From Promethearchaeota archaeon (GTDB lineage Archaea > Asgardarchaeota > Lokiarchaeia > Sigyniarchaeales > SOKP01): a stretch of DNA of 64,000 nucleotides. Within the stretch, counting starts at the first letter, position 1; every line of letters starts with the position of its first letter. Below the pieces are notes generated by a model. It did not search any database. It was not told where the DNA came from and worked only from the letters and a program-made list of their open reading frames with translations. Positions 2,598 to 10,767 of the stretch are shown here, piece after piece. Location: positions 1-64,000 of the forward strand of contig RDOA01000016.1 of NCBI GenBank assembly GCA_011364925.1, read 5' to 3'. The translations under genes and the position numbers were made by a program.

Positions 2598-2640
2598 TGT
2601 AAAATAAAAAACAAAATTATATGCTAATATAATTAGCATA
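2598..2640 (-). terminator. Hairpin plus T-rich tract downstream of the AOR-family gene
   Basis: Perfect 9-bp inverted repeat TATGCTAAT-ATA-ATTAGCATA (2620-2640), followed on the minus strand by TAATTTTGTTTTTTATTTT. Confidence 0.55.
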
Positions 2641-2644
2641 GATA

Positions 2645-4561
2645 TTATTCGATTAAACGACCTGCTTGTGCTAGTTTTTCAGCTATGTCATTTAACCTTA
2701 GATTTTCTAGGGTTTCACGTGTTTGCCATCCAGTTTCCTTATCCCATCCATGGAGATCATAGAATTTATCTAACATTAAATTATATTTATCCAGATCTAA
2801 TTTCTCACCTTTATGGGGTCCAGACTGAATTGGATCTTCAAAAAATCTTCGATGCGGTAAATCGTCTTTCCGCGTGAATCCTACATGTAGTGTATTAAAC
2901 GCTTTTTCTATGTTATACGATTTTTGTCCAAGCAGCATAAATTCTTCTTCGTTTAAATTAGTTCCAATCGCTAAGTTAGTTAAATCAACGTAATCAGAAG
3001 GTTCAAGCGCATACACTCCAGACCATGTTCCCACGTACACGCATATTCCTATGATATCTTCTATTTCTTTTGAACGCAGCTCCCAAAACACCATTGGTGG
3101 CTGGTCTTCGTAAGAAAAAGGATTAAATTTAGCCCCTTTTGGTCCAAATGCTATAGGTAAATTAAGACTTCCTCTCATATGACGTCCAGCAACAGGGGAT
3201 GTCGCACAGGCAAGAGACCATCCTTTTGCCAATCTGTAAGGATCAAGAGTATCTTGATATTTTTGGTGGATAGCAAATTGTTCTGAACCTTTTCCGAGTT
3301 TTTTTGCTGCTTCGACTACGCCATCAGCAAGATAATCGCCGAAACCCTTTCGGAAAGCGATTTTTTCTTGTAATTCCATCATTGCCTCTGTATTTCCCCA
3401 ATTTAATTCTAGACCATCTGTATCTCCTTTCGTTAATAGACCCTTCTCATATGCCTCAAATGACCATGACATCACAACAGAAGAATCATCTCCGTCCAAA
3501 CCTAATTCATTGGCATGGAGGTGGTATTTTAACGAAGCTTCTGGATCGGTTACATCCATTTTGCCCGACCACATTACGGAATTTATCCAATATCCTAAAC
3601 CCTTAGCACCTTTATATTTGCCCTCGTTGATTTCTGAAAATGGTTGACACCCTACCGGGCAAGCGTAACACGCTTGAATTTTTTTGAAGTGCTTTCCTAC
3701 ACCTTCTTTTCCCATCATCCTCGATCTTTTTTCACGAGACCAATGGACATCTTGGGAATTTCTAACGGTGTGCATCATCTCCCAAAGCTCGTCAAATTGC
3801 TCAGAATCATTATAAACTAAACCTCCAAGAGTTTTCTTTCTGAACAATTTAGCTGTGGGTCGACTCATAATTTTTTGATACGCTTCATATGCTCTTTCAA
3901 CGAATTTTTCTGGAAACGCAACTTTAATCTCCTTATGACCTCTTACTGCGATTGCTTTTATTTTCTTATCTCCCATAACGCAACCAACACCTGAACCACC
4001 AGCAGCTCGACCACAATCAATAATGATAGAAGATCCACGCACAAGATTCTCTCCCGCGGGTCCTATTGATGCAACTTCAAGCTTATTATCTTTTAATTCG
4101 TTTTTGAGCATCTCTTCTGTTTCATAAGTAGTCTTATTCCATAAATGCCCTGCATCGCGAATTTCTGCTTTTCCATCTTCGATATAGAGATAAACAGGTT
4201 TTTTTGCCTTCCCACTAATAATGATTTGATCAAAGCCAGCGAATTTTACCTCAGGACTGAAATGACCTCCAAAATTGGAGGACCCTTTACCGTTATTGAA
4301 AACATTTAAAGTATCAATATTCATTCGGTTTGCGGGAAGAATTGTTCCTACTAGAACTCCTGCCCCAAATATCAAATAATTCTCTGGATCATCCCATTTT
4401 ACACCAGGCGCTACTTCGTTGAGAAGAATCCAACTGCTTATTGCTCTACCCCCAATCCATTTTTCAGCATATACATTATCTTCCACTTTAATAGTGTCAT
4501 TGTTTAAATTAACTCTAAGTATTTTTCCAGTGATTCCACCTCGAATATTAAATGTACTCAC
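2645..4561 (-). CDS. Tungsten/molybdenum aldehyde:ferredoxin oxidoreductase (AOR/WOR) family protein
   Basis: GKILRVNL, SIGPAGEN, GRAAGGSGVGCVMGDKKIKAIAVRG, CYACPVGC, NELGLD, DIIGIC, YDLHGWD-x3-G. Likely GTG start at 4561, immediately after the upstream stop. Confidence 0.92.
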   Translation of the reverse strand: MSTFNIRGGITGKILRVNLNNDTIKVEDNVYAEKWIGGRAISSWILLNEVAPGVKWDDPENYLIFGAGVLVGTILPANRMNIDTLNVFNNGKGSSNFGGHFSPEVKFAGFDQIIISGKAKKPVYLYIEDGKAEIRDAGHLWNKTTYETEEMLKNELKDNKLEVASIGPAGENLVRGSSIIIDCGRAAGGSGVGCVMGDKKIKAIAVRGHKEIKVAFPEKFVERAYEAYQKIMSRPTAKLFRKKTLGGLVYNDSEQFDELWEMMHTVRNSQDVHWSREKRSRMMGKEGVGKHFKKIQACYACPVGCQPFSEINEGKYKGAKGLGYWINSVMWSGKMDVTDPEASLKYHLHANELGLDGDDSSVVMSWSFEAYEKGLLTKGDTDGLELNWGNTEAMMELQEKIAFRKGFGDYLADGVVEAAKKLGKGSEQFAIHQKYQDTLDPYRLAKGWSLACATSPVAGRHMRGSLNLPIAFGPKGAKFNPFSYEDQPPMVFWELRSKEIEDIIGICVYVGTWSGVYALEPSDYVDLTNLAIGTNLNEEEFMLLGQKSYNIEKAFNTLHVGFTRKDDLPHRRFFEDPIQSGPHKGEKLDLDKYNLMLDKFYDLHGWDKETGWQTRETLENLRLNDIAEKLAQAGRLIE

Positions 4562-4562
4562 T

Positions 4563-4826
4563 TTATTCTTCACCCTCCTCAATTGTAATAGCATTATAAA
4601 AACAAAATTTCACGCATAATGGTTGTTCTTCCCCTTGACAATTATCGCAAGTATCGTTCAAAGTCCAGCGCCAGATCCCATTAATGTGATCTCTCTCAAC
4701 GGAAATACTCGACACTGAAGGTTGAAAAGATTTGGTGTGGTGAAAAGAACATATCAATTCACAAGTTTTACACGCATAACACTTCTCAAGAGAATGCTTA
4801 ATTTTAAATGTACTCATACTTGTCAT
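4563..4826 (-). CDS. Small 4Fe-4S subunit associated with the AOR-family enzyme
   Basis: CYACKTCELICS and CDNC...PLCVKFC motifs; abuts the AOR gene. Confidence 0.85.
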   Translation of the reverse strand: MTSMSTFKIKHSLEKCYACKTCELICSFHHTKSFQPSVSSISVERDHINGIWRWTLNDTCDNCQGEEQPLCVKFCFYNAITIEEGEE

Positions 4827-4885
4827 CTTTATTTCTACAATCTTAACATTTAATTTTTTTAATATTTTAATTTTTTAACAAAAAT

Positions 4886-5635
4886 TTAGGTAATAGTAGA
4901 AGATCTTACGACTCTCTTTTTTTCGGTTAATTTTTCTGAGATCTCTACAATTTTTTTCACTCTATTAATTTCCAAAACTCCGTTCCTTCTATCAGATTCG
5001 CTACACACGGCACCTCTAAATCCAATAATATCTGTTCCTAAATTATAAAGCGTACTTATATCGCTTGGTTTAATCGATCCAGCTAAAGCCGCTAACAATT
5101 TAAATTTATGCGCTTTATTAACGAACTTACTCAATTGCTCAGAATCGATAAAGTCAAACAATTTTCGACCATCTTTTATATAGGTATCTAACATTGCTAC
5201 ATCGGCTTCAGCTGAATTACATATTTCTGGAATATCCATGGGGTTGATACCGTTAAAAATCTTGGAATCTGCATACCCTGCTCCAACAACAATTATATTT
5301 TGGTCAACATTTTTTGTTGCTTTAACTACGCTTTTTAAAAGTTTTACTCCATCTTTGATCGAGTTAGGACCGAGTAGTCCTACTTTTACGATATCAGCAC
5401 CACATATTGCAGCCCCAGAAGAAGCAAGAGCTGCTGTACCAGGTAAATTCGGCATATCTCCAATAGCAACGCTTAGAGTAAAATTACTACTATAATTTCT
5501 GATTTCTTTAATTAGCCACGGAAAGGCAGCACCAAGTGAACCTTCATTTGGATTTTTTAAATCGATTATATCAGCTCCTCCTTCAATAGCAGGTAGCAAC
5601 TCCTCAAAGGAACGGATACTAATCAAAACTTTCAA
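4886..5635 (-). CDS. mfnB: (5-formylfuran-3-yl)methyl phosphate (4-HFC-P) synthase, methanofuran biosynthesis
   Basis: LIS...GGADIIDLKNPNEGSLGA, SVAIGD, IVKVG, MLDTYIKDG, ALAGS and GFRGAVC motifs. TTG start preceded by GAAGGAG. Confidence 0.9.
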   Translation of the reverse strand: MKVLISIRSFEELLPAIEGGADIIDLKNPNEGSLGAAFPWLIKEIRNYSSNFTLSVAIGDMPNLPGTAALASSGAAICGADIVKVGLLGPNSIKDGVKLLKSVVKATKNVDQNIIVVGAGYADSKIFNGINPMDIPEICNSAEADVAMLDTYIKDGRKLFDFIDSEQLSKFVNKAHKFKLLAALAGSIKPSDISTLYNLGTDIIGFRGAVCSESDRRNGVLEINRVKKIVEISEKLTEKKRVVRSSTIT

Positions 5636-5675
5636 AACTTCTTAACTCCTTCAATTAAAAAAAAAAATAAAAATT

Positions 5676-6746
5676 TTAATGAGATGGAATACCAATCGCT
5701 GCGCCACCTACAGGTAATTCTTCTCCTAACGCTTTTTGCACCAGCATAATTACATGATACGGCTCCATCCCAAAATCTTTTTTGGAAGGTTGTCTCATGA
5801 CAGCAGCACAGATAGGACAGAAGAAAATATAAGCTTCTGCACCTGCATCTTTAGCATCTTGTAAATTGGTATGAACCAAACCCATTGCTCGTTCACGTTG
5901 AGTTGGAAATATTCCAGAACTGCAACACATCGAATTCTCTCTTTCATATTTACGCTTTACAAGTTCTACTCCTAGTAGATCAAAGATTTCTTCGATCCAG
6001 TCATAGATCGTCTCATCCAAAGAACCATGCGGGTTGTACCTTGAAGTACAAGGGCGTTGATATGCCACTTTAAAATTTAGCGGTGTTATCTCGTCTTTAT
6101 GCTCTCGCAACCAATTTCGAATGTATTCAATATAATGAACTGGCTTAAATGGAACTTCAATATTCTGAGATAACGCTTCGGCAGTTAATAAACCATAGCA
6201 AGCATCATGGTAAAAAATTATTTCTTTATAACCTGTTTCAGCTAAATTCTTTACCAAAGTAGGAAGATACTTGAATGGAGGATCTCGTTCTCCCATATGA
6301 GTAGCACCCATTCGACAACAATACGATCCACCCATTATTATCGTTAATCCTTCAAATAATTTTCCTGTGAAAATCTTATCCCAAGGAAGGACATCCATAA
6401 ATCCTCCTAATGAGATTGCTACTTTATCATGATCTCCTTTGATAATTCGATCTTCTTTTGTAGCCCATCCTCTAGCAGTTGTTTTAGCTTTATCAGGGTA
6501 TATATACAATCCAGTTTTTTGCTGCATAAAATTAATTAACTCCCATGGATTTGCCCCGGTTGGACAAAACTCGTTACAAGCATAGCAAGTTACACATTTG
6601 GAGAGTATATCTGCTGGTTCTTGACGAATTAACTTAGTAATATCATCCTTTGCCTGTTTTTCGTCGTAATCAACGAAAAGACATTTCGATAAGCATTCAC
6701 CTTTGCATTTAGAAAAATCACACCTTCTTAAATCAAATTGTGCCAT
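5676..6746 (-). CDS. HdrD/GlpC-like Fe-S protein with CCG domains
   Basis: N-terminal Cys clusters (CxxCxxxCxxxC; CVTCYACNEFCP); YCC...HDAC; YQRPC...MCCSSG...CPIC. Likely start MAQFDL. Confidence 0.8.
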   Translation of the reverse strand: MAQFDLRRCDFSKCKGECLSKCLFVDYDEKQAKDDITKLIRQEPADILSKCVTCYACNEFCPTGANPWELINFMQQKTGLYIYPDKAKTTARGWATKEDRIIKGDHDKVAISLGGFMDVLPWDKIFTGKLFEGLTIIMGGSYCCRMGATHMGERDPPFKYLPTLVKNLAETGYKEIIFYHDACYGLLTAEALSQNIEVPFKPVHYIEYIRNWLREHKDEITPLNFKVAYQRPCTSRYNPHGSLDETIYDWIEEIFDLLGVELVKRKYERENSMCCSSGIFPTQRERAMGLVHTNLQDAKDAGAEAYIFFCPICAAVMRQPSKKDFGMEPYHVIMLVQKALGEELPVGGAAIGIPSH

Positions 6747-6795
6747 TTTTACGATTCTCTTTTTTTTAGTTCGAATATATATATTTTTCAAAACT

Positions 6796-7110
6796 TTATT
6801 GGAAAGGTTTTTTTGTCTTATATCTGGTCATAGCTTGGTCCACATAAGCTGTCATTTGGACAGCTGAGCTTTGACAAGCCTCTGCACATTTTGCACAACC
6901 AATACAATATTCCGGAGCATCTAACCAAGCACGAGGGACTTTTTCGTCGAGTCCAAACAATACAATACCGCCTTGTGGACAAGCTTTAACACAATCGCCA
7001 CAACCATCACACATAAAAGGCATAAACCAGGGCATTTGTTTTGGAGGCTTTTTAGGTTTCTTTGGAATTTTCTTTGCTTTCTTTTCTTCTTCGTTTTTAG
7101 TTTCAGTCAT
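6796..7110 (-). CDS. 2x[4Fe-4S] ferredoxin with Lys/Pro-rich N-terminus
   Basis: CDGCGDCVKACP and CIGCAKCAEAC. Confidence 0.88.
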   Translation of the reverse strand: MTETKNEEEKKAKKIPKKPKKPPKQMPWFMPFMCDGCGDCVKACPQGGIVLFGLDEKVPRAWLDAPEYCIGCAKCAEACQSSAVQMTAYVDQAMTRYKTKKPFQ

Positions 7111-7209
7111 TTTCTTTCTATTGTCCTTTCAATTATTTTATCCAATAAAATTTCAAGTTTAAACTTATACTAATTTCAAAAAAAAAATTATGTTTAATTA
7201 TTTTATATT

Positions 7210-7626
7210 TTATTTTGGAAGATCGGTCCAAAGACCGTGTTCCCATTCTTCACATTCTTGAGCAGGTTTGAGATCAAGTCTTGTTCCTGCATAGCATCCC
7301 GGTTTAGTACAATAAAGTTCAGACAATTTTACTGTTAGGTTATAAATGTCTCCTTCTTTATTCACAGTTCCTTTACCTTTGAATTGATAACAAGCACGTA
7401 TACCTCCCGCTCGGGATACTCCAAACGCAACCCAAGGATTTTCAGATAATGCAGATTCAATAACTGAATATTCATCCCGAGATAACGCAAAAACTACTTC
7501 ATCATCTGAAACCGACTTTACATTTCTTGCAACGGTAACGAATGGGACTCCCGATTTACTTGCCACATTTAAGTGGCAACCAATTTTTACCCAAGATTTC
7601 ATCCTATCAGTTAGTTTTACAGTCAT
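7210..7626 (-). CDS. Pyridoxamine 5'-phosphate oxidase-like FMN-binding split-barrel protein
   Basis: VASKSGVP, LSENPWV, YQFKGKG and LSELYCTKPG pattern; paralog of the next gene. Confidence 0.7.
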   Translation of the reverse strand: MTVKLTDRMKSWVKIGCHLNVASKSGVPFVTVARNVKSVSDDEVVFALSRDEYSVIESALSENPWVAFGVSRAGGIRACYQFKGKGTVNKEGDIYNLTVKLSELYCTKPGCYAGTRLDLKPAQECEEWEHGLWTDLPK

Positions 7627-7638
7627 TTTTTATCCCTC

Positions 7639-8124
7639 CTATTGTAATTTCTCACCTACTTTTCCTTTTTCAATAGAATAAATCTCTTCTACATGTAAGA
7701 CTACGACTCCACGCTGAGCTGGTACAGAATAAACGACATCTGGAGGAACCTCGTCTGGAGGTTCTTTTTGATGCCAGTCACCCCACTCATCTAAGATTTC
7801 CTTAGTTGTTACACCATACCAATCAAAGTCTGGGGGAAAACCATATTCAAAATCAATCGCTTTACCTTTAAAGACCCAATCTCTTCCAGAATCCAATGGA
7901 TGACAAATTGCTATAATGCATTCAGGATTCTCTTTAAGATTCGTTTTGGTTTTAAGTAAAAACATATCTGAAATCAGGATTTTGTCGTCTTTATATGTAT
8001 CTACGTAACGCATTGCAGCAATATTTGGTTTACCATCAGCTGACGAGGTTGCTAAATAAACCAAACTGCCCCCTTTACCCGGAACGCGCAATCCTTCCTT
8101 CATTTCATTTGTTAATTTTACCAT
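7639..8124 (-). CDS. Pyridoxamine 5'-phosphate oxidase-like FMN-binding split-barrel protein
   Basis: LATSSADGKPN, DMFLLKTKTNLKENP, FKGKA, VEEIYS. Confidence 0.8.
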   Translation of the reverse strand: MVKLTNEMKEGLRVPGKGGSLVYLATSSADGKPNIAAMRYVDTYKDDKILISDMFLLKTKTNLKENPECIIAICHPLDSGRDWVFKGKAIDFEYGFPPDFDWYGVTTKEILDEWGDWHQKEPPDEVPPDVVYSVPAQRGVVVLHVEEIYSIEKGKVGEKLQ

Positions 8125-8475
8125 TTTTTTATCTCCTTTTTTGATATAGATATATATTTGATATAAAAAATATTAAATTAATATTCAAAATTTTTTATAT
8201 GAGTTAATCTATTTTTTCTTTTTTATAAATGTTTCTGTATGACTAATGATTCAGAGCTGAAAATTAAGGTAAAAAGAAAAATAAATTCTCTTCAATCTAT
8301 ATCCAAAAACTTTAATTTAAACACTTTTTTTATATAGTAAGAACTTTACTTTGGATGCTTGGATCTATCTAATATAAACAGACATTTTTTTAAATGAAAT
8401 TCCAATATTCTAATTAATTACTGTAGAGTGCTAAAGTTAATAAAAAAAAAGAAATTCTTTGGTAGTGCATTAAGA

Positions 8476-10767
8476 ATGAATGAAATTTATGAAATTTTAT
8501 TTATTTCTAATTCTAAAGACGGAGAATCTCCAGTATTGCAAAAATTAAAAGAACAAAACTTTAGGGTACAATTAGAGTCCTTCGAGAATCAAATTAATTT
8601 ATGCTCAGTTGTAACTAGAGGAACAAGGGATCTTATTTTATCTGATTATGAGTCATGGGCACAAACAGGATTGGAAATATTAAGAATGATTAAAGAAAGA
8701 GATTTAATGGTTCCTTATGTTGTTATAGGTAAGGAATTAGACGAACAAGCAATGATTTCCCTAATAGAAACTGGTGTAAGTGATTATATTGAAGAATGTA
8801 ATCTGCATCATTTGATCCCTACAATTAAACGAGAGATAAGAAATTCTCTTACCGTAAAAAAACTTAAAAATATAAATTTTTCTCAATGTTTAACTGAAGA
8901 GAAATTCCAAACATTACTCAATATTTCGAAATTTATGATTTATACCTTAGATTTAAACACGGATCTTGTTGATATTAATAATGCTTTTAATGAGTTTTCA
9001 GGTTATGATAAGGATGAAATCCTGGATTCATCAAACATTTATGAATTCATCCATCCTAATGATAAAAAGATTCTTATCAATGGAATTCAAAAAGTTATGG
9101 ATGGTATGTTTGTTAATAATATTGAATTTAGGTTCAAAAGGAAGAATGGATCTTACATGCTATTATCTTCGAATCTAGCACCAATTTTTGATAATCAAAA
9201 TGAAATGATTGGTATCCTTTTTGTTTCCGAAGATTTGACGAAAAGTAAGGAAATCGAACAGTCTATTGAAGATCATATCCATAGACAAGCTTTAATTGCA
9301 CAATTTGGTTTGGAAACTATTACTGAAAAAGAAATCGATAATGTATTTATAAAAGCAACAACTTTACTCGCAAAAATACTGGATGTTGAATATACAAAAG
9401 TGCTTGAAATTCTTCCTGATAAAAAATTTTTGAAATTACGAGCTGGAGTTGGTTGGCATGAGGGATTGGTTGGAAACGCTACTGTTGAAAACAATAAAAA
9501 TTCACAAGCTGGTTTTACATTACTAACTACTGCTCCGGTAATCGTGGAAAACCTAAAAACTGAAACAAGGTTTTGTGCTCCAAAACTTCTCGCGGATCAC
9601 GATGTTATCAGTGGAATGAGTGTTATAATTCAGGGAAAAAATAACCCCTTCGGTATTTTAGGAATTCACACAAAAAAACATAGGATATTTTCTAAAGATG
9701 ATATTAACTTCTTACAATCTGTCGCGAATGTTCTTGCAGGAGTTATTGTTCGTGATTCCACTGAGAAAGATTTAAGAGAAAGTGAAGAAAAGTATCGAAT
9801 GTTGACAGAACAATCATTATTAGGAACAATTATCATATCCAATGGACAAATTATTTTTGCAAACAAAGGTATTTCTAACATTTTAGGATTTTCAATAAAT
9901 GAACTCCTCTCATGGGATATTAACACCATAAACCAGCATATTCATCCAGAAAATAGACAAATAATAATTGAAAATTATAATAAAATTTTAAATGAAGAAA
10001 TATCCTCGTTTCAATCCGAAATTCAAATGAAAAAAAAAAATAACAAATATCTGTATATTCAGCAGTATTCAAAAAGAATCCCGTTCCAAGGAAGTTCTGC
10101 CTTATTTATAAATATAATCGATATTGATAAACAGAAAAATAACGAATCATTGCTAGAATCTTCGCTAGCTGAAAAAGAAATACTCTTGAAAGAAATTCAC
10201 CATAGAGTAAAGAACAATTTGCAAATCATTTCAAGTTTAATTGTTTTACAAGAGCAATATGTAACAGATGACAGAATTCTTCATATTTTCAAGGATTTCC
10301 AAAATCGCATCAAAGTCATGGCATTAATACACCAAACATTATATAACTCCGAAAATTTAAACAAGATCCACCTCTCAAAATATATAAAAAACCTTGTTGA
10401 CAATCTTTTTAAAGTATATTCAGCAAGTTTTAAACAGATTAAGTTAGAATTGGATATCGAAGATGTTGATTTCAATTTAGACAATGCTAATGCTTGCGGT
10501 TTAATTATAAATGAACTTGTATCTAACTCGTTGAAACACGCATTTTCTCGAGATGATAAAGGGAAAATTATTGTTACTTTGAAAAAAACTGGAGAAGAGA
10601 AAATCTTATTGGATGTTTATGATAATGGGAGAGGTTTTCCTGAAGACTTAGATTATAAGAATTCAGATTCATTAGGATTAAAACTTATAACAACCATAAC
10701 CAAACAGATGAATGGGAAAATTTCCATTGAAAGAAATAAAGGAACTCATGTTAAAATCACGTGGTAA
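8476..10767 (+). CDS. Soluble sensor histidine kinase (pseudo-REC, PAS, GAF, PAS, HisKA_2, HATPase)
   Basis: EIHHRVKNNLQ H-box; NELVSNSLKHAF; DNGRGFP; SLGLKLI; two PAS domains (IHP motifs) and a GAF (DDINFLQSVAN). Confidence 0.92.
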   Translation: MNEIYEILFISNSKDGESPVLQKLKEQNFRVQLESFENQINLCSVVTRGTRDLILSDYESWAQTGLEILRMIKERDLMVPYVVIGKELDEQAMISLIETGVSDYIEECNLHHLIPTIKREIRNSLTVKKLKNINFSQCLTEEKFQTLLNISKFMIYTLDLNTDLVDINNAFNEFSGYDKDEILDSSNIYEFIHPNDKKILINGIQKVMDGMFVNNIEFRFKRKNGSYMLLSSNLAPIFDNQNEMIGILFVSEDLTKSKEIEQSIEDHIHRQALIAQFGLETITEKEIDNVFIKATTLLAKILDVEYTKVLEILPDKKFLKLRAGVGWHEGLVGNATVENNKNSQAGFTLLTTAPVIVENLKTETRFCAPKLLADHDVISGMSVIIQGKNNPFGILGIHTKKHRIFSKDDINFLQSVANVLAGVIVRDSTEKDLRESEEKYRMLTEQSLLGTIIISNGQIIFANKGISNILGFSINELLSWDINTINQHIHPENRQIIIENYNKILNEEISSFQSEIQMKKKNNKYLYIQQYSKRIPFQGSSALFINIIDIDKQKNNESLLESSLAEKEILLKEIHHRVKNNLQIISSLIVLQEQYVTDDRILHIFKDFQNRIKVMALIHQTLYNSENLNKIHLSKYIKNLVDNLFKVYSASFKQIKLELDIEDVDFNLDNANACGLIINELVSNSLKHAFSRDDKGKIIVTLKKTGEEKILLDVYDNGRGFPEDLDYKNSDSLGLKLITTITKQMNGKISIERNKGTHVKITW

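Follow-up and report, generated by a model that had tools for sequence, protein, structure and literature searches.

In the genome of a Promethearchaeota archaeon (an Asgard archaeon; assembly GCA_011364925.1) we analysed a stretch of 64,000 nucleotides (contig RDOA01000016.1, positions 1 to 64,000; hereafter the window) and found that a seven-gene operon in it combines three units, each of which occurs separately as well. The first unit would be a portable ferredoxin-linked core, consisting of an HdrD-like CCG protein (g4), a predicted heterodimer of the proteins g1 and g2, and a 2x[4Fe-4S] ferredoxin (g3). The second would be a two-subunit W/Mo-pterin oxidoreductase of a non-canonical clade, made up of an enzyme of the WOR/AOR family (here the operon WOR) and a small Fe-S subunit (g6), and the third MfnB2, a spare synthase of 4-(hydroxymethyl)-2-furancarboxaldehyde phosphate (4-HFC-P) with intact catalytic residues. 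Our preferred explanation, which we put forward tentatively and give somewhat less than an even chance, is that the operon encodes a redox side-branch that is inducible, is linked to ferredoxin and has the furan aldehyde 4-HFC-P as its substrate. An earlier reading of the DNA letters alone (the sequence-only reading) had singled out the same genes as a candidate furan-aldehyde redox system.

The proteins of the window were compared by tblastn with 22 loci around MfnB2 copies, and the gene order g1-g2-Fd-CCG-MfnB2-FeS-WOR (Fd, CCG and FeS standing for g3, g4 and g6) was found in every locus of sufficient length. The rare g2 gene was then used as a marker of the block across 400 Asgard species genomes. 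The block was detected in 17 of them, all belonging to one family and four genera, with mfnB adjacent in 16 of the 17 and with protein identities among related blocks going down to 55-80%. Because the same order is kept in 17 species genomes of four genera at such identities, the arrangement is not a matter of chance. The neighbourhood search thus showed mfnB beside redox genes in relatives too, and the linkage is not unique to this genome. Genes for a divergently oriented sensor kinase (71-82% identical in related loci), a response regulator of REC-ArsR type (73-78%) and a stand-alone ArsR protein (69-78%, adjoining the block in 11 related loci) recur with the block. The genes beyond it vary between genomes, and the block is therefore an accessory island. 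Contamination of the assembly was ruled out by the Asgard-type flanking genes and by the presence of the same block in many Asgard contigs.

Rearranged versions of the block were also found. In locus L031 it is split into two halves, g1-g2-Fd-CCG-MfnB2 and MfnB2-FeS-WOR, each with its own MfnB2, and these two copies are 63% identical and come from different subclades. Locus L038, a metagenome contig with an integrase, holds all seven genes in a changed order. The conserved synteny, the linkage kept through both rearrangements and a separate housekeeping mfnB elsewhere in the genome support the proposed functional tie between mfnB and the redox genes. A decayed relative of the block (L111:4544-8747) encodes MfnA (421 bits, above the cut-off) directly upstream of a 320-aa CCG protein and MfnB2, and after these a 111-aa AFOR_C fragment as remnant of the WOR. 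Genes for a class III aminotransferase and a FAD-linked oxidase lie nearby in L111, and the same neighbours flank an unlinked MfnB2 in L112.

The MfnB2 protein matched PF04476 over profile positions 1-227 of 228. On alignment to the structure of MJ1099 from Methanocaldococcus jannaschii (4RC1; 235 bits, about 50% identity) it retained D25, K27, K84 (K85 in M. jannaschii) and D150 (D151 in M. jannaschii), which confirmed the earlier statement that the catalytic motifs are intact. The catalytic set (D25/K27/K85/D151, M. jannaschii numbering) was present in 69 of 69 aligned MfnB sequences, 26 columns were invariant across that alignment, and a single site (A57 against T) separated MfnB2 from the other MfnB clades. 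The dN/dS ratio of MfnB2 was approx. 0.13-0.25, indicating purifying selection, which was detected for all seven operon genes. Given the retained catalytic residues, the single differing site and the purifying selection, MfnB2 should still produce 4-HFC-P or a closely similar compound. MfnB2 scored under the cut-offs of the NCBIfam equivalog models NF002573 (286 vs 341 bits) and NF002575 (264 vs 304 bits); the housekeeping MfnB was likewise under both cut-offs, and we therefore concluded that these models are narrow.

The housekeeping mfnB was found on contig C44, beside a HisA/HisF-related gene and proC, so the operon copy is not the only one in the genome. The two proteins shared 46% identity by BLASTP and 44% in the 69-sequence alignment. 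Within the 400 Asgard species genomes, an MfnB copy approx. 45-52% identical to the query was present in 122 of the 134 genomes of the family to which the window belongs, and a further copy, 55-79% identical to the operon MfnB, in approx. 22 genomes. In a quick maximum-likelihood tree MfnB2 formed its own clade (SH-aLRT 94), distinct from the MfnB of methanogens and from the Asgard housekeeping copies. This clade takes in all operon copies and some unlinked copies.

The portable core was characterised protein by protein. The g1 protein matched PF01243 with 33.3 bits (cut-off 28.1) and was the most conserved core subunit, with 81-92% identity among the Asgard copies and 69-74% to the methanogen-type copies described below. 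Its predicted model was a split barrel (pLDDT 72.6) with HupZ, the F420-binding Rv1155 and an FMN-binding protein as nearest structures, and these fold neighbours bind FMN, F420 or haem. The identity of g1 to solved split-barrel members was 14-22%, a sequence search against solved structures returned marginal HupZ/HutZ matches only, and a language-model atlas gave no more than a generic PNPOx label. No Pfam or NCBIfam match was obtained for g2, which is weakly similar to g1 (25% identity, E 1e-5) and belongs to a very small family of 19 representative clusters in 1.84 billion proteins. When g1 and g2 were predicted as a heterodimer the ipSAE was 0.86, the best of three controls reaching 0.00; the prediction runs agreed in at least 92% of the contacts, with a partner pLDDT of at least 87. 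The ipSAE mark was met by 58 of 80 solved complexes and by 2 of 110 mismatched pairs, counts that are only rough here, as own alignments were used. The prediction supports a g1-g2 heterodimer, and its pass may partly reflect likeness to solved split-barrel homodimers.

The ferredoxin gene g3 always follows g2, in Asgard and in methanogen-type loci, and its product has a Lys/Pro-rich N-terminal extension of approx. 25 residues that is not conserved in relatives. The g4 protein has an N-terminal dicluster ferredoxin domain and matched PF02754 with 41 bits over residues 242-332. Two full CXnCCXnCXXC motifs are typical of HdrD/HdrB-type proteins; in g4 the C-terminal one is complete (C248...C289C290...C325xxC328) and the first is degenerate, with only CC and one C. 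Relatives of g4 are 354-356 aa long, and its true start lies probably near 6746. CCG homologues approx. 40% identical to it in Deltaproteobacteria and Dehalococcoidia were found in unrelated contexts. The g4 gene is also a mosaic, being 90-92% identical to the copies in L017 and L023 but only approx. 72% to others (L018-L025), where the adjoining genes show an even 80-90% identity; this pattern suggests allele exchange by recombination. In two further loci (L063:1110-6812 and L113:1003-7106) g1-g2 are followed by a gene for a protein of approx. 590 aa that belongs to no known family, and also by genes for LarC, LarB and a LarE-like protein, which are nickel-pincer cofactor genes. In L063 a ferredoxin gene comes after the 590-aa gene, and in L113 a Prismane-family gene follows.

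The core was also searched for in a sample of 401 genomes from the phylum to which an Archaeoglobales metagenome-assembled genome (MAG) belongs. The arrangement CCG-g1-g2-Fd was found in 9 of the 401, with no WOR or MfnB gene within 9 kb of it. The gene convergent to this methanogen-type core encodes Mch, an enzyme of the tetrahydromethanopterin (H4MPT) pathway, as a second copy. In a 121-genome sample of the order concerned, a full-length second Mch (389-401 bits) was present in 12 genomes and stood beside the core in 12 of 12; none was detected in the remaining genomes of that sample. The 12 genomes have GC contents of 0.42-0.66 and are yet related, so the count overstates their independence. 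Kinases with PAS/GAF domains flank the methanogen version of the core as well. In both archaeal groups the core is accompanied by a surplus copy of a methanofuran/H4MPT pathway enzyme, and for this reason we favour a ferredoxin-linked redox step on the product of MfnB2.

Several observations weigh against this explanation. One Asgard locus (L052, of genome G151/G803, one species) contains the whole block without mfnB, and the only mfnB of that genome is the housekeeping one elsewhere. Six MfnB2 copies among the loci searched lie outside the block, and the related genomes that share the block are non-independent samples. Within the operon no transaminase, kinase or furan-coupling enzyme was found, and we know of no cultured Asgard carrier. 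The remaining points concern the WOR. At the positions of Thr243, Tyr312, Glu313 and Tyr427 of PfAOR it reads Gly, Ile, Asn and Leu. Thr243, Glu313, Tyr427 and His448 (PfAOR numbering) are second-shell residues conserved in aldehyde-oxidising WORs (PMC12096430), and of this set 1 of 4, His448, is kept; Tyr312 is conserved in those enzymes too (PMC12096430, PMC13328260). Since Thr243, Glu313 and Tyr427 are replaced, direct aldehyde oxidation by the operon WOR is doubtful. Furthermore, no PF04476 match was detected in five genomes with related FeS-WOR pairs, the completeness of which has not been established. In view of these genomes and of the altered residues, the operon WOR represents a clade of its own, and 4-HFC-P is not necessarily its substrate.

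Some of these observations would suit an explanation in which mfnB2 either encodes an isozyme under shared regulation or is a hitchhiker. The redox genes would then form a generic ferredoxin-linked system that has nothing to do with furans and serves detoxification or the oxidation of an anionic substrate, and MfnB2 would top up methanofuran synthesis under the same stimulus. This explanation is consistent with the block that exists without mfnB in G151, with the MfnB2 copies outside the block and with the occurrence of WOR and core without MfnB elsewhere. In addition, MfnB2 is the fastest-evolving gene of the operon, and a genome with 16 WOR paralogues makes adjacency to one of them less surprising. 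However, the position of mfnB is internal to the operon, with the CCG gene on one side and the FeS gene on the other, two independent rearrangements have not broken its linkage, and in the split locus each half holds a copy. The core also behaves alike with the second Mch, another paralogue of a one-carbon pathway, in 12 of 12 methanogen-type cases. We judge the isozyme or hitchhiker explanation unlikely.

The nearest solved relative of the operon WOR was PfAOR (328 bits), ahead of FOR, the AOR of A. aromaticum and BamB (223 bits). Both AFOR_N and AFOR_C are kept, as are the CxxCxxxC...C motif for the [4Fe-4S] cluster and the pterin motifs. The genome encodes 16 WOR/AOR-family paralogues; the other 15 all keep the Glu313 position, and a conserved GRH[ML]RG motif together with a K/R before a G[YFW]W motif occurs only in the operon WOR clade among the 16. 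Orthologues 56-58% identical in Deltaproteobacteria and Dehalococcoidales share the motifs G[YFW]W[IVM]N and GRH[ML]RG and have the same small Fe-S partner, and in more distant relatives from Bathyarchaeota and Pseudomonadota what is shared is limited to Asn in place of Glu313 and to the Fe-S partner. The g6 gene is always directly upstream of the WOR gene and overlaps it, bacterial orthologues included, and the eight Cys of its product would be enough for two clusters. The other neighbours of the bacterial FeS-WOR orthologues are inconsistent: one orthologue lies beside isochorismatase/DUF169/nitroreductase genes, one faces a convergent TRAP transporter gene and one has housekeeping genes beside it. 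An Archaeoglobales MAG contig (L053:9303-10406) carries only the C-terminal 367 aa of a WOR of this clade, at 72% identity, which is probably the remnant of a transfer.

A second explanation would make the operon WOR a furan-aldehyde:ferredoxin oxidoreductase that converts 4-HFC-P to 4-(phosphooxymethyl)furan-2-carboxylate, the other proteins only carrying the electrons off. In every copy mfnB, where present, is immediately upstream of FeS-WOR, and one half of L031 consists of just MfnB2-FeS-WOR; the pterin and Fe-S motifs and His448 are kept, and the clade-only GRH[ML]RG motif and the K/R before G[YFW]W would suit an anionic substrate. Nevertheless, of the four second-shell residues found in aldehyde-oxidising WORs, three are replaced (PMC12096430), the 56-58% identical orthologues with the same active-site motifs come from genomes in which no MfnB was found, and the product has no known use. 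On balance such an oxidoreductase seems improbable. The proposal in the sequence-only reading that the AOR simply oxidises or reduces the MfnB aldehyde is weakened in the same way by the replaced residues and by the orthologues in genomes without mfnB, and further by the block without mfnB in one species and by the core that stands beside Mch with neither AOR nor mfnB.

The AOR-family subunit without the aldehyde residues, the small Fe-S subunit, the HdrD-like CCG protein and the flavoproteins also recall BamBCD (PMC13328260), and the operon could accordingly be read as a machine resembling class II benzoyl-CoA reductase, in which the g1/g2-CCG module would drive, by flavin-based electron bifurcation, the dearomatisation of a furan or other aromatic ring by the WOR. 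Absence of the aldehyde residues is stated for the BamB and YdhV clades only, where a Cys ligand is present instead (PMC12096430, PMC13328260). No Cys of the BamB Cys322/YdhV Cys336 type was found within 30 residues after the cluster motif of the operon WOR, the position being occupied by Gly. Pfam and NCBIfam searches gave no homologues of BamE, BamF or BamGHI in the block, PfAOR is closer to the WOR than BamB is (328 vs 223 bits), and in the methanogen-type genomes the core occurs without any WOR. We consider this dearomatising machine very improbable. The analogy drawn in the sequence-only reading is thus a loose one, which holds for the pairing of an AOR-type subunit with an Hdr-like protein and fails at the Cys ligand and at BamE-I.

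Profile searches of the whole genome detected FwdA, two Ftr, MfnA and two MfnB (contigs C40, C26, C11, C101, C44). For MfnE (NF040622) and MfnF (TIGR03123) no match was obtained in this genome, the estimated completeness of which is 100%, and the same models matched in both control methanogens. The later steps of methanofuran synthesis in this lineage may use unknown enzymes. Because MfnE and MfnF were not matched despite the presence of FwdA, Ftr and MfnA, furan processing in the lineage is incompletely understood.

In the side-branch that we favour, the two-component system would switch the accessory operon, and on induction MfnB2 would form 4-HFC-P from glyceraldehyde-3-phosphate. The 4-HFC-P, or its formyl group, would then undergo a two-electron conversion, carried out by the core, the WOR or both. 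Electrons could pass from the WOR pterin to its [4Fe-4S] cluster, to the 87-aa Fe-S subunit, to the ferredoxin and on to g1/g2 and the CCG protein, or along the same path in reverse. We prefer a redox step in which the WOR is the catalytic or electron partner to both a plain furan-aldehyde oxidase and a catabolic pathway. In net terms the operon would add a side-branch to one-carbon-carrier chemistry of the methanofuran type; furan catabolism was rejected, as MfnB works in the synthetic direction and neither a transporter nor a CoA-ligase is present. A pathway for furan utilisation or detoxification, also suggested in the sequence-only reading, is unlikely, the operon making a furan instead of importing one.

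A more general proposal is that the core is an undescribed oxygen-independent enzyme system for formyl-level chemistry on one-carbon carriers. In Asgard archaea it would recruit a spare MfnB, a non-canonical WOR serving as electron partner, and in methanogens of Methanomicrobiales type a spare Mch. We regard this proposal as possible, though rather less probable than the side-branch itself. In its concrete form g1/g2 would be a ferredoxin-linked counterpart of pyridoxine/pyridoxamine 5'-phosphate (PNP/PMP) oxidase, interconverting 4-HFC-P and [5-(aminomethyl)furan-3-yl]methyl phosphate (F1-P). These two compounds resemble pyridoxal 5'-phosphate (PLP) and PMP, and their interconversion would bypass the MfnC transaminase in a genome where MfnE and MfnF were not found either.

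Our literature searches returned nothing relevant on MfnB together with AOR or on MfnB in Asgard archaea, and the 2026 paper that classifies the WORs makes no mention of CCG, furan or Asgard (PMC13328260). The operon ties an enzyme of the methanofuran pathway to low-potential redox proteins, a link not described in the literature searched, and its WOR clade combines an altered active site with an unusual set of partners. Together, operon and core point to an undescribed branch of one-carbon-carrier chemistry. It may bear on the synthesis of the formyl carrier in these Asgard archaea, as MfnE and MfnF were not detected in the genome. The core behaves alike with Mch in methanogens, some of them with apparently complete, probably cultured genomes; these carriers open the idea to genetic and biochemical tests, despite the lack of a cultured Asgard carrier.

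The coordinates of the operon and of the divergent regulatory genes are given below. The source genome has approx. 33% GC and 3.9 Mb. The seven open reading frames of one direction lie exactly where the sequence-only reading placed them, and its observation is confirmed. From g1 to WOR the intergenic gaps are 12, 99, 4 (approx. 49 if g4 starts as in its relatives), 40 and 59 nt, followed by the overlap of g6 and WOR. A GGAG sequence lies 8 nt 5' of the g1 ATG. The predicted terminator at the end of the operon was recovered directly 3' of the WOR stop codon (2647-2645). A scan with a sigma-70 promoter/terminator model gave 16 sites where 21.8 were expected; this bacterial model is uninformative for an archaeon. 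The statement that the window holds no other mfn gene stands for MfnA, MfnE and MfnF, the part covered by profile searches, which found none on the contig. Downstream of the operon (1040-2497) a single-ring CDC48-like AAA protein is encoded.

Features of the operon and of its divergent regulatory unit in the window
Feature	Position	Strand	Basis
g1 split-barrel (PNPOx-like) protein, 161 aa	7639-8124	-	PNPOx_N (PF01243)
g2 split-barrel partner of g1, 138 aa	7210-7626	-	divergent; rare family; without Pfam match
g3 2x[4Fe-4S] ferredoxin, 104 aa, 8 Cys	6796-7110	-	Fer4_9 and Fer4_7 matches
g4 HdrD-like CCG Fe-S protein, 371 aa	5676-6791	-	Fer4 and CCG (PF02754)
MfnB2, accessory paralogue of 4-HFC-P synthase, 249 aa	4886-5635	-	PF04476, 248 bits
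g6 Fe-S subunit of WOR ('mini-WorS'), 87 aa, 8 Cys	4563-4826	-	weak Fer4 and YdhY-like matches; Cys pattern
WOR/AOR-family pterin enzyme, non-canonical clade, 649 aa	2645-4594	-	AFOR_N 220 bits and AFOR_C 270 bits
terminator-like element	2601-2640	-	9-bp perfect hairpin 2640-2620, T-rich run 2619-2601; read from sequence
hybrid sensor histidine kinase REC-PAS-GAF-PAS-HisKA_2-HATPase	8428-10767	+	Pfam domains; divergent from operon
response regulator fused to ArsR/MarR-type HTH, 280 aa	10761-11603	+	Response_reg and HTH_5/MarR in homologous locus L013
stand-alone ArsR-type HTH regulator, 115 aa	11645-11992	+	HTH_5 in homologous locus L013; third gene of divergent regulatory unit

Four known systems were compared with the operon. 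MfnB2 shares with MJ1099 MfnB (PDB 4RC1/4U9P) the PF04476 fold family, the four catalytic residues and the 26 invariant columns; it differs in belonging to a separate accessory clade, as a second copy to the housekeeping one, and its gene is embedded in a redox operon and not among mfn genes. The split-barrel flavoproteins PdxH, Rv1155, HupZ/HutZ and the FMN-binding protein of D. vulgaris have the same fold as g1/g2 and are dimeric with the ligand at the interface, whereas g1/g2 is a predicted heterodimer whose two subunits have diverged and whose genes stand with those of a ferredoxin and a CCG protein. Class II benzoyl-CoA reductase BamBCDEFGHI likewise has, besides an AOR-family subunit that is missing the aldehyde residues, a small Fe-S subunit and an HdrD-like protein. 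Unlike it, the operon is without the W-ligating Cys and without HdrA-like, MvhD-like and NuoEF-like subunits, and its flavoproteins are others. The class II WORs (WorL and WorS; PfASOR/WOR5 and CbGOR; PMC13328260) resemble the operon enzyme in the [4Fe-4S] pterin subunit, in the small Fe-S subunit gene placed before it and in ferredoxin as likely carrier. Their WorS has four [4Fe-4S] clusters, whereas the operon WorS of 87 aa has eight Cys, which would serve two clusters, and the operon WOR has Thr243, Glu313 and Tyr427 replaced and its gene linked to CCG and split-barrel genes.

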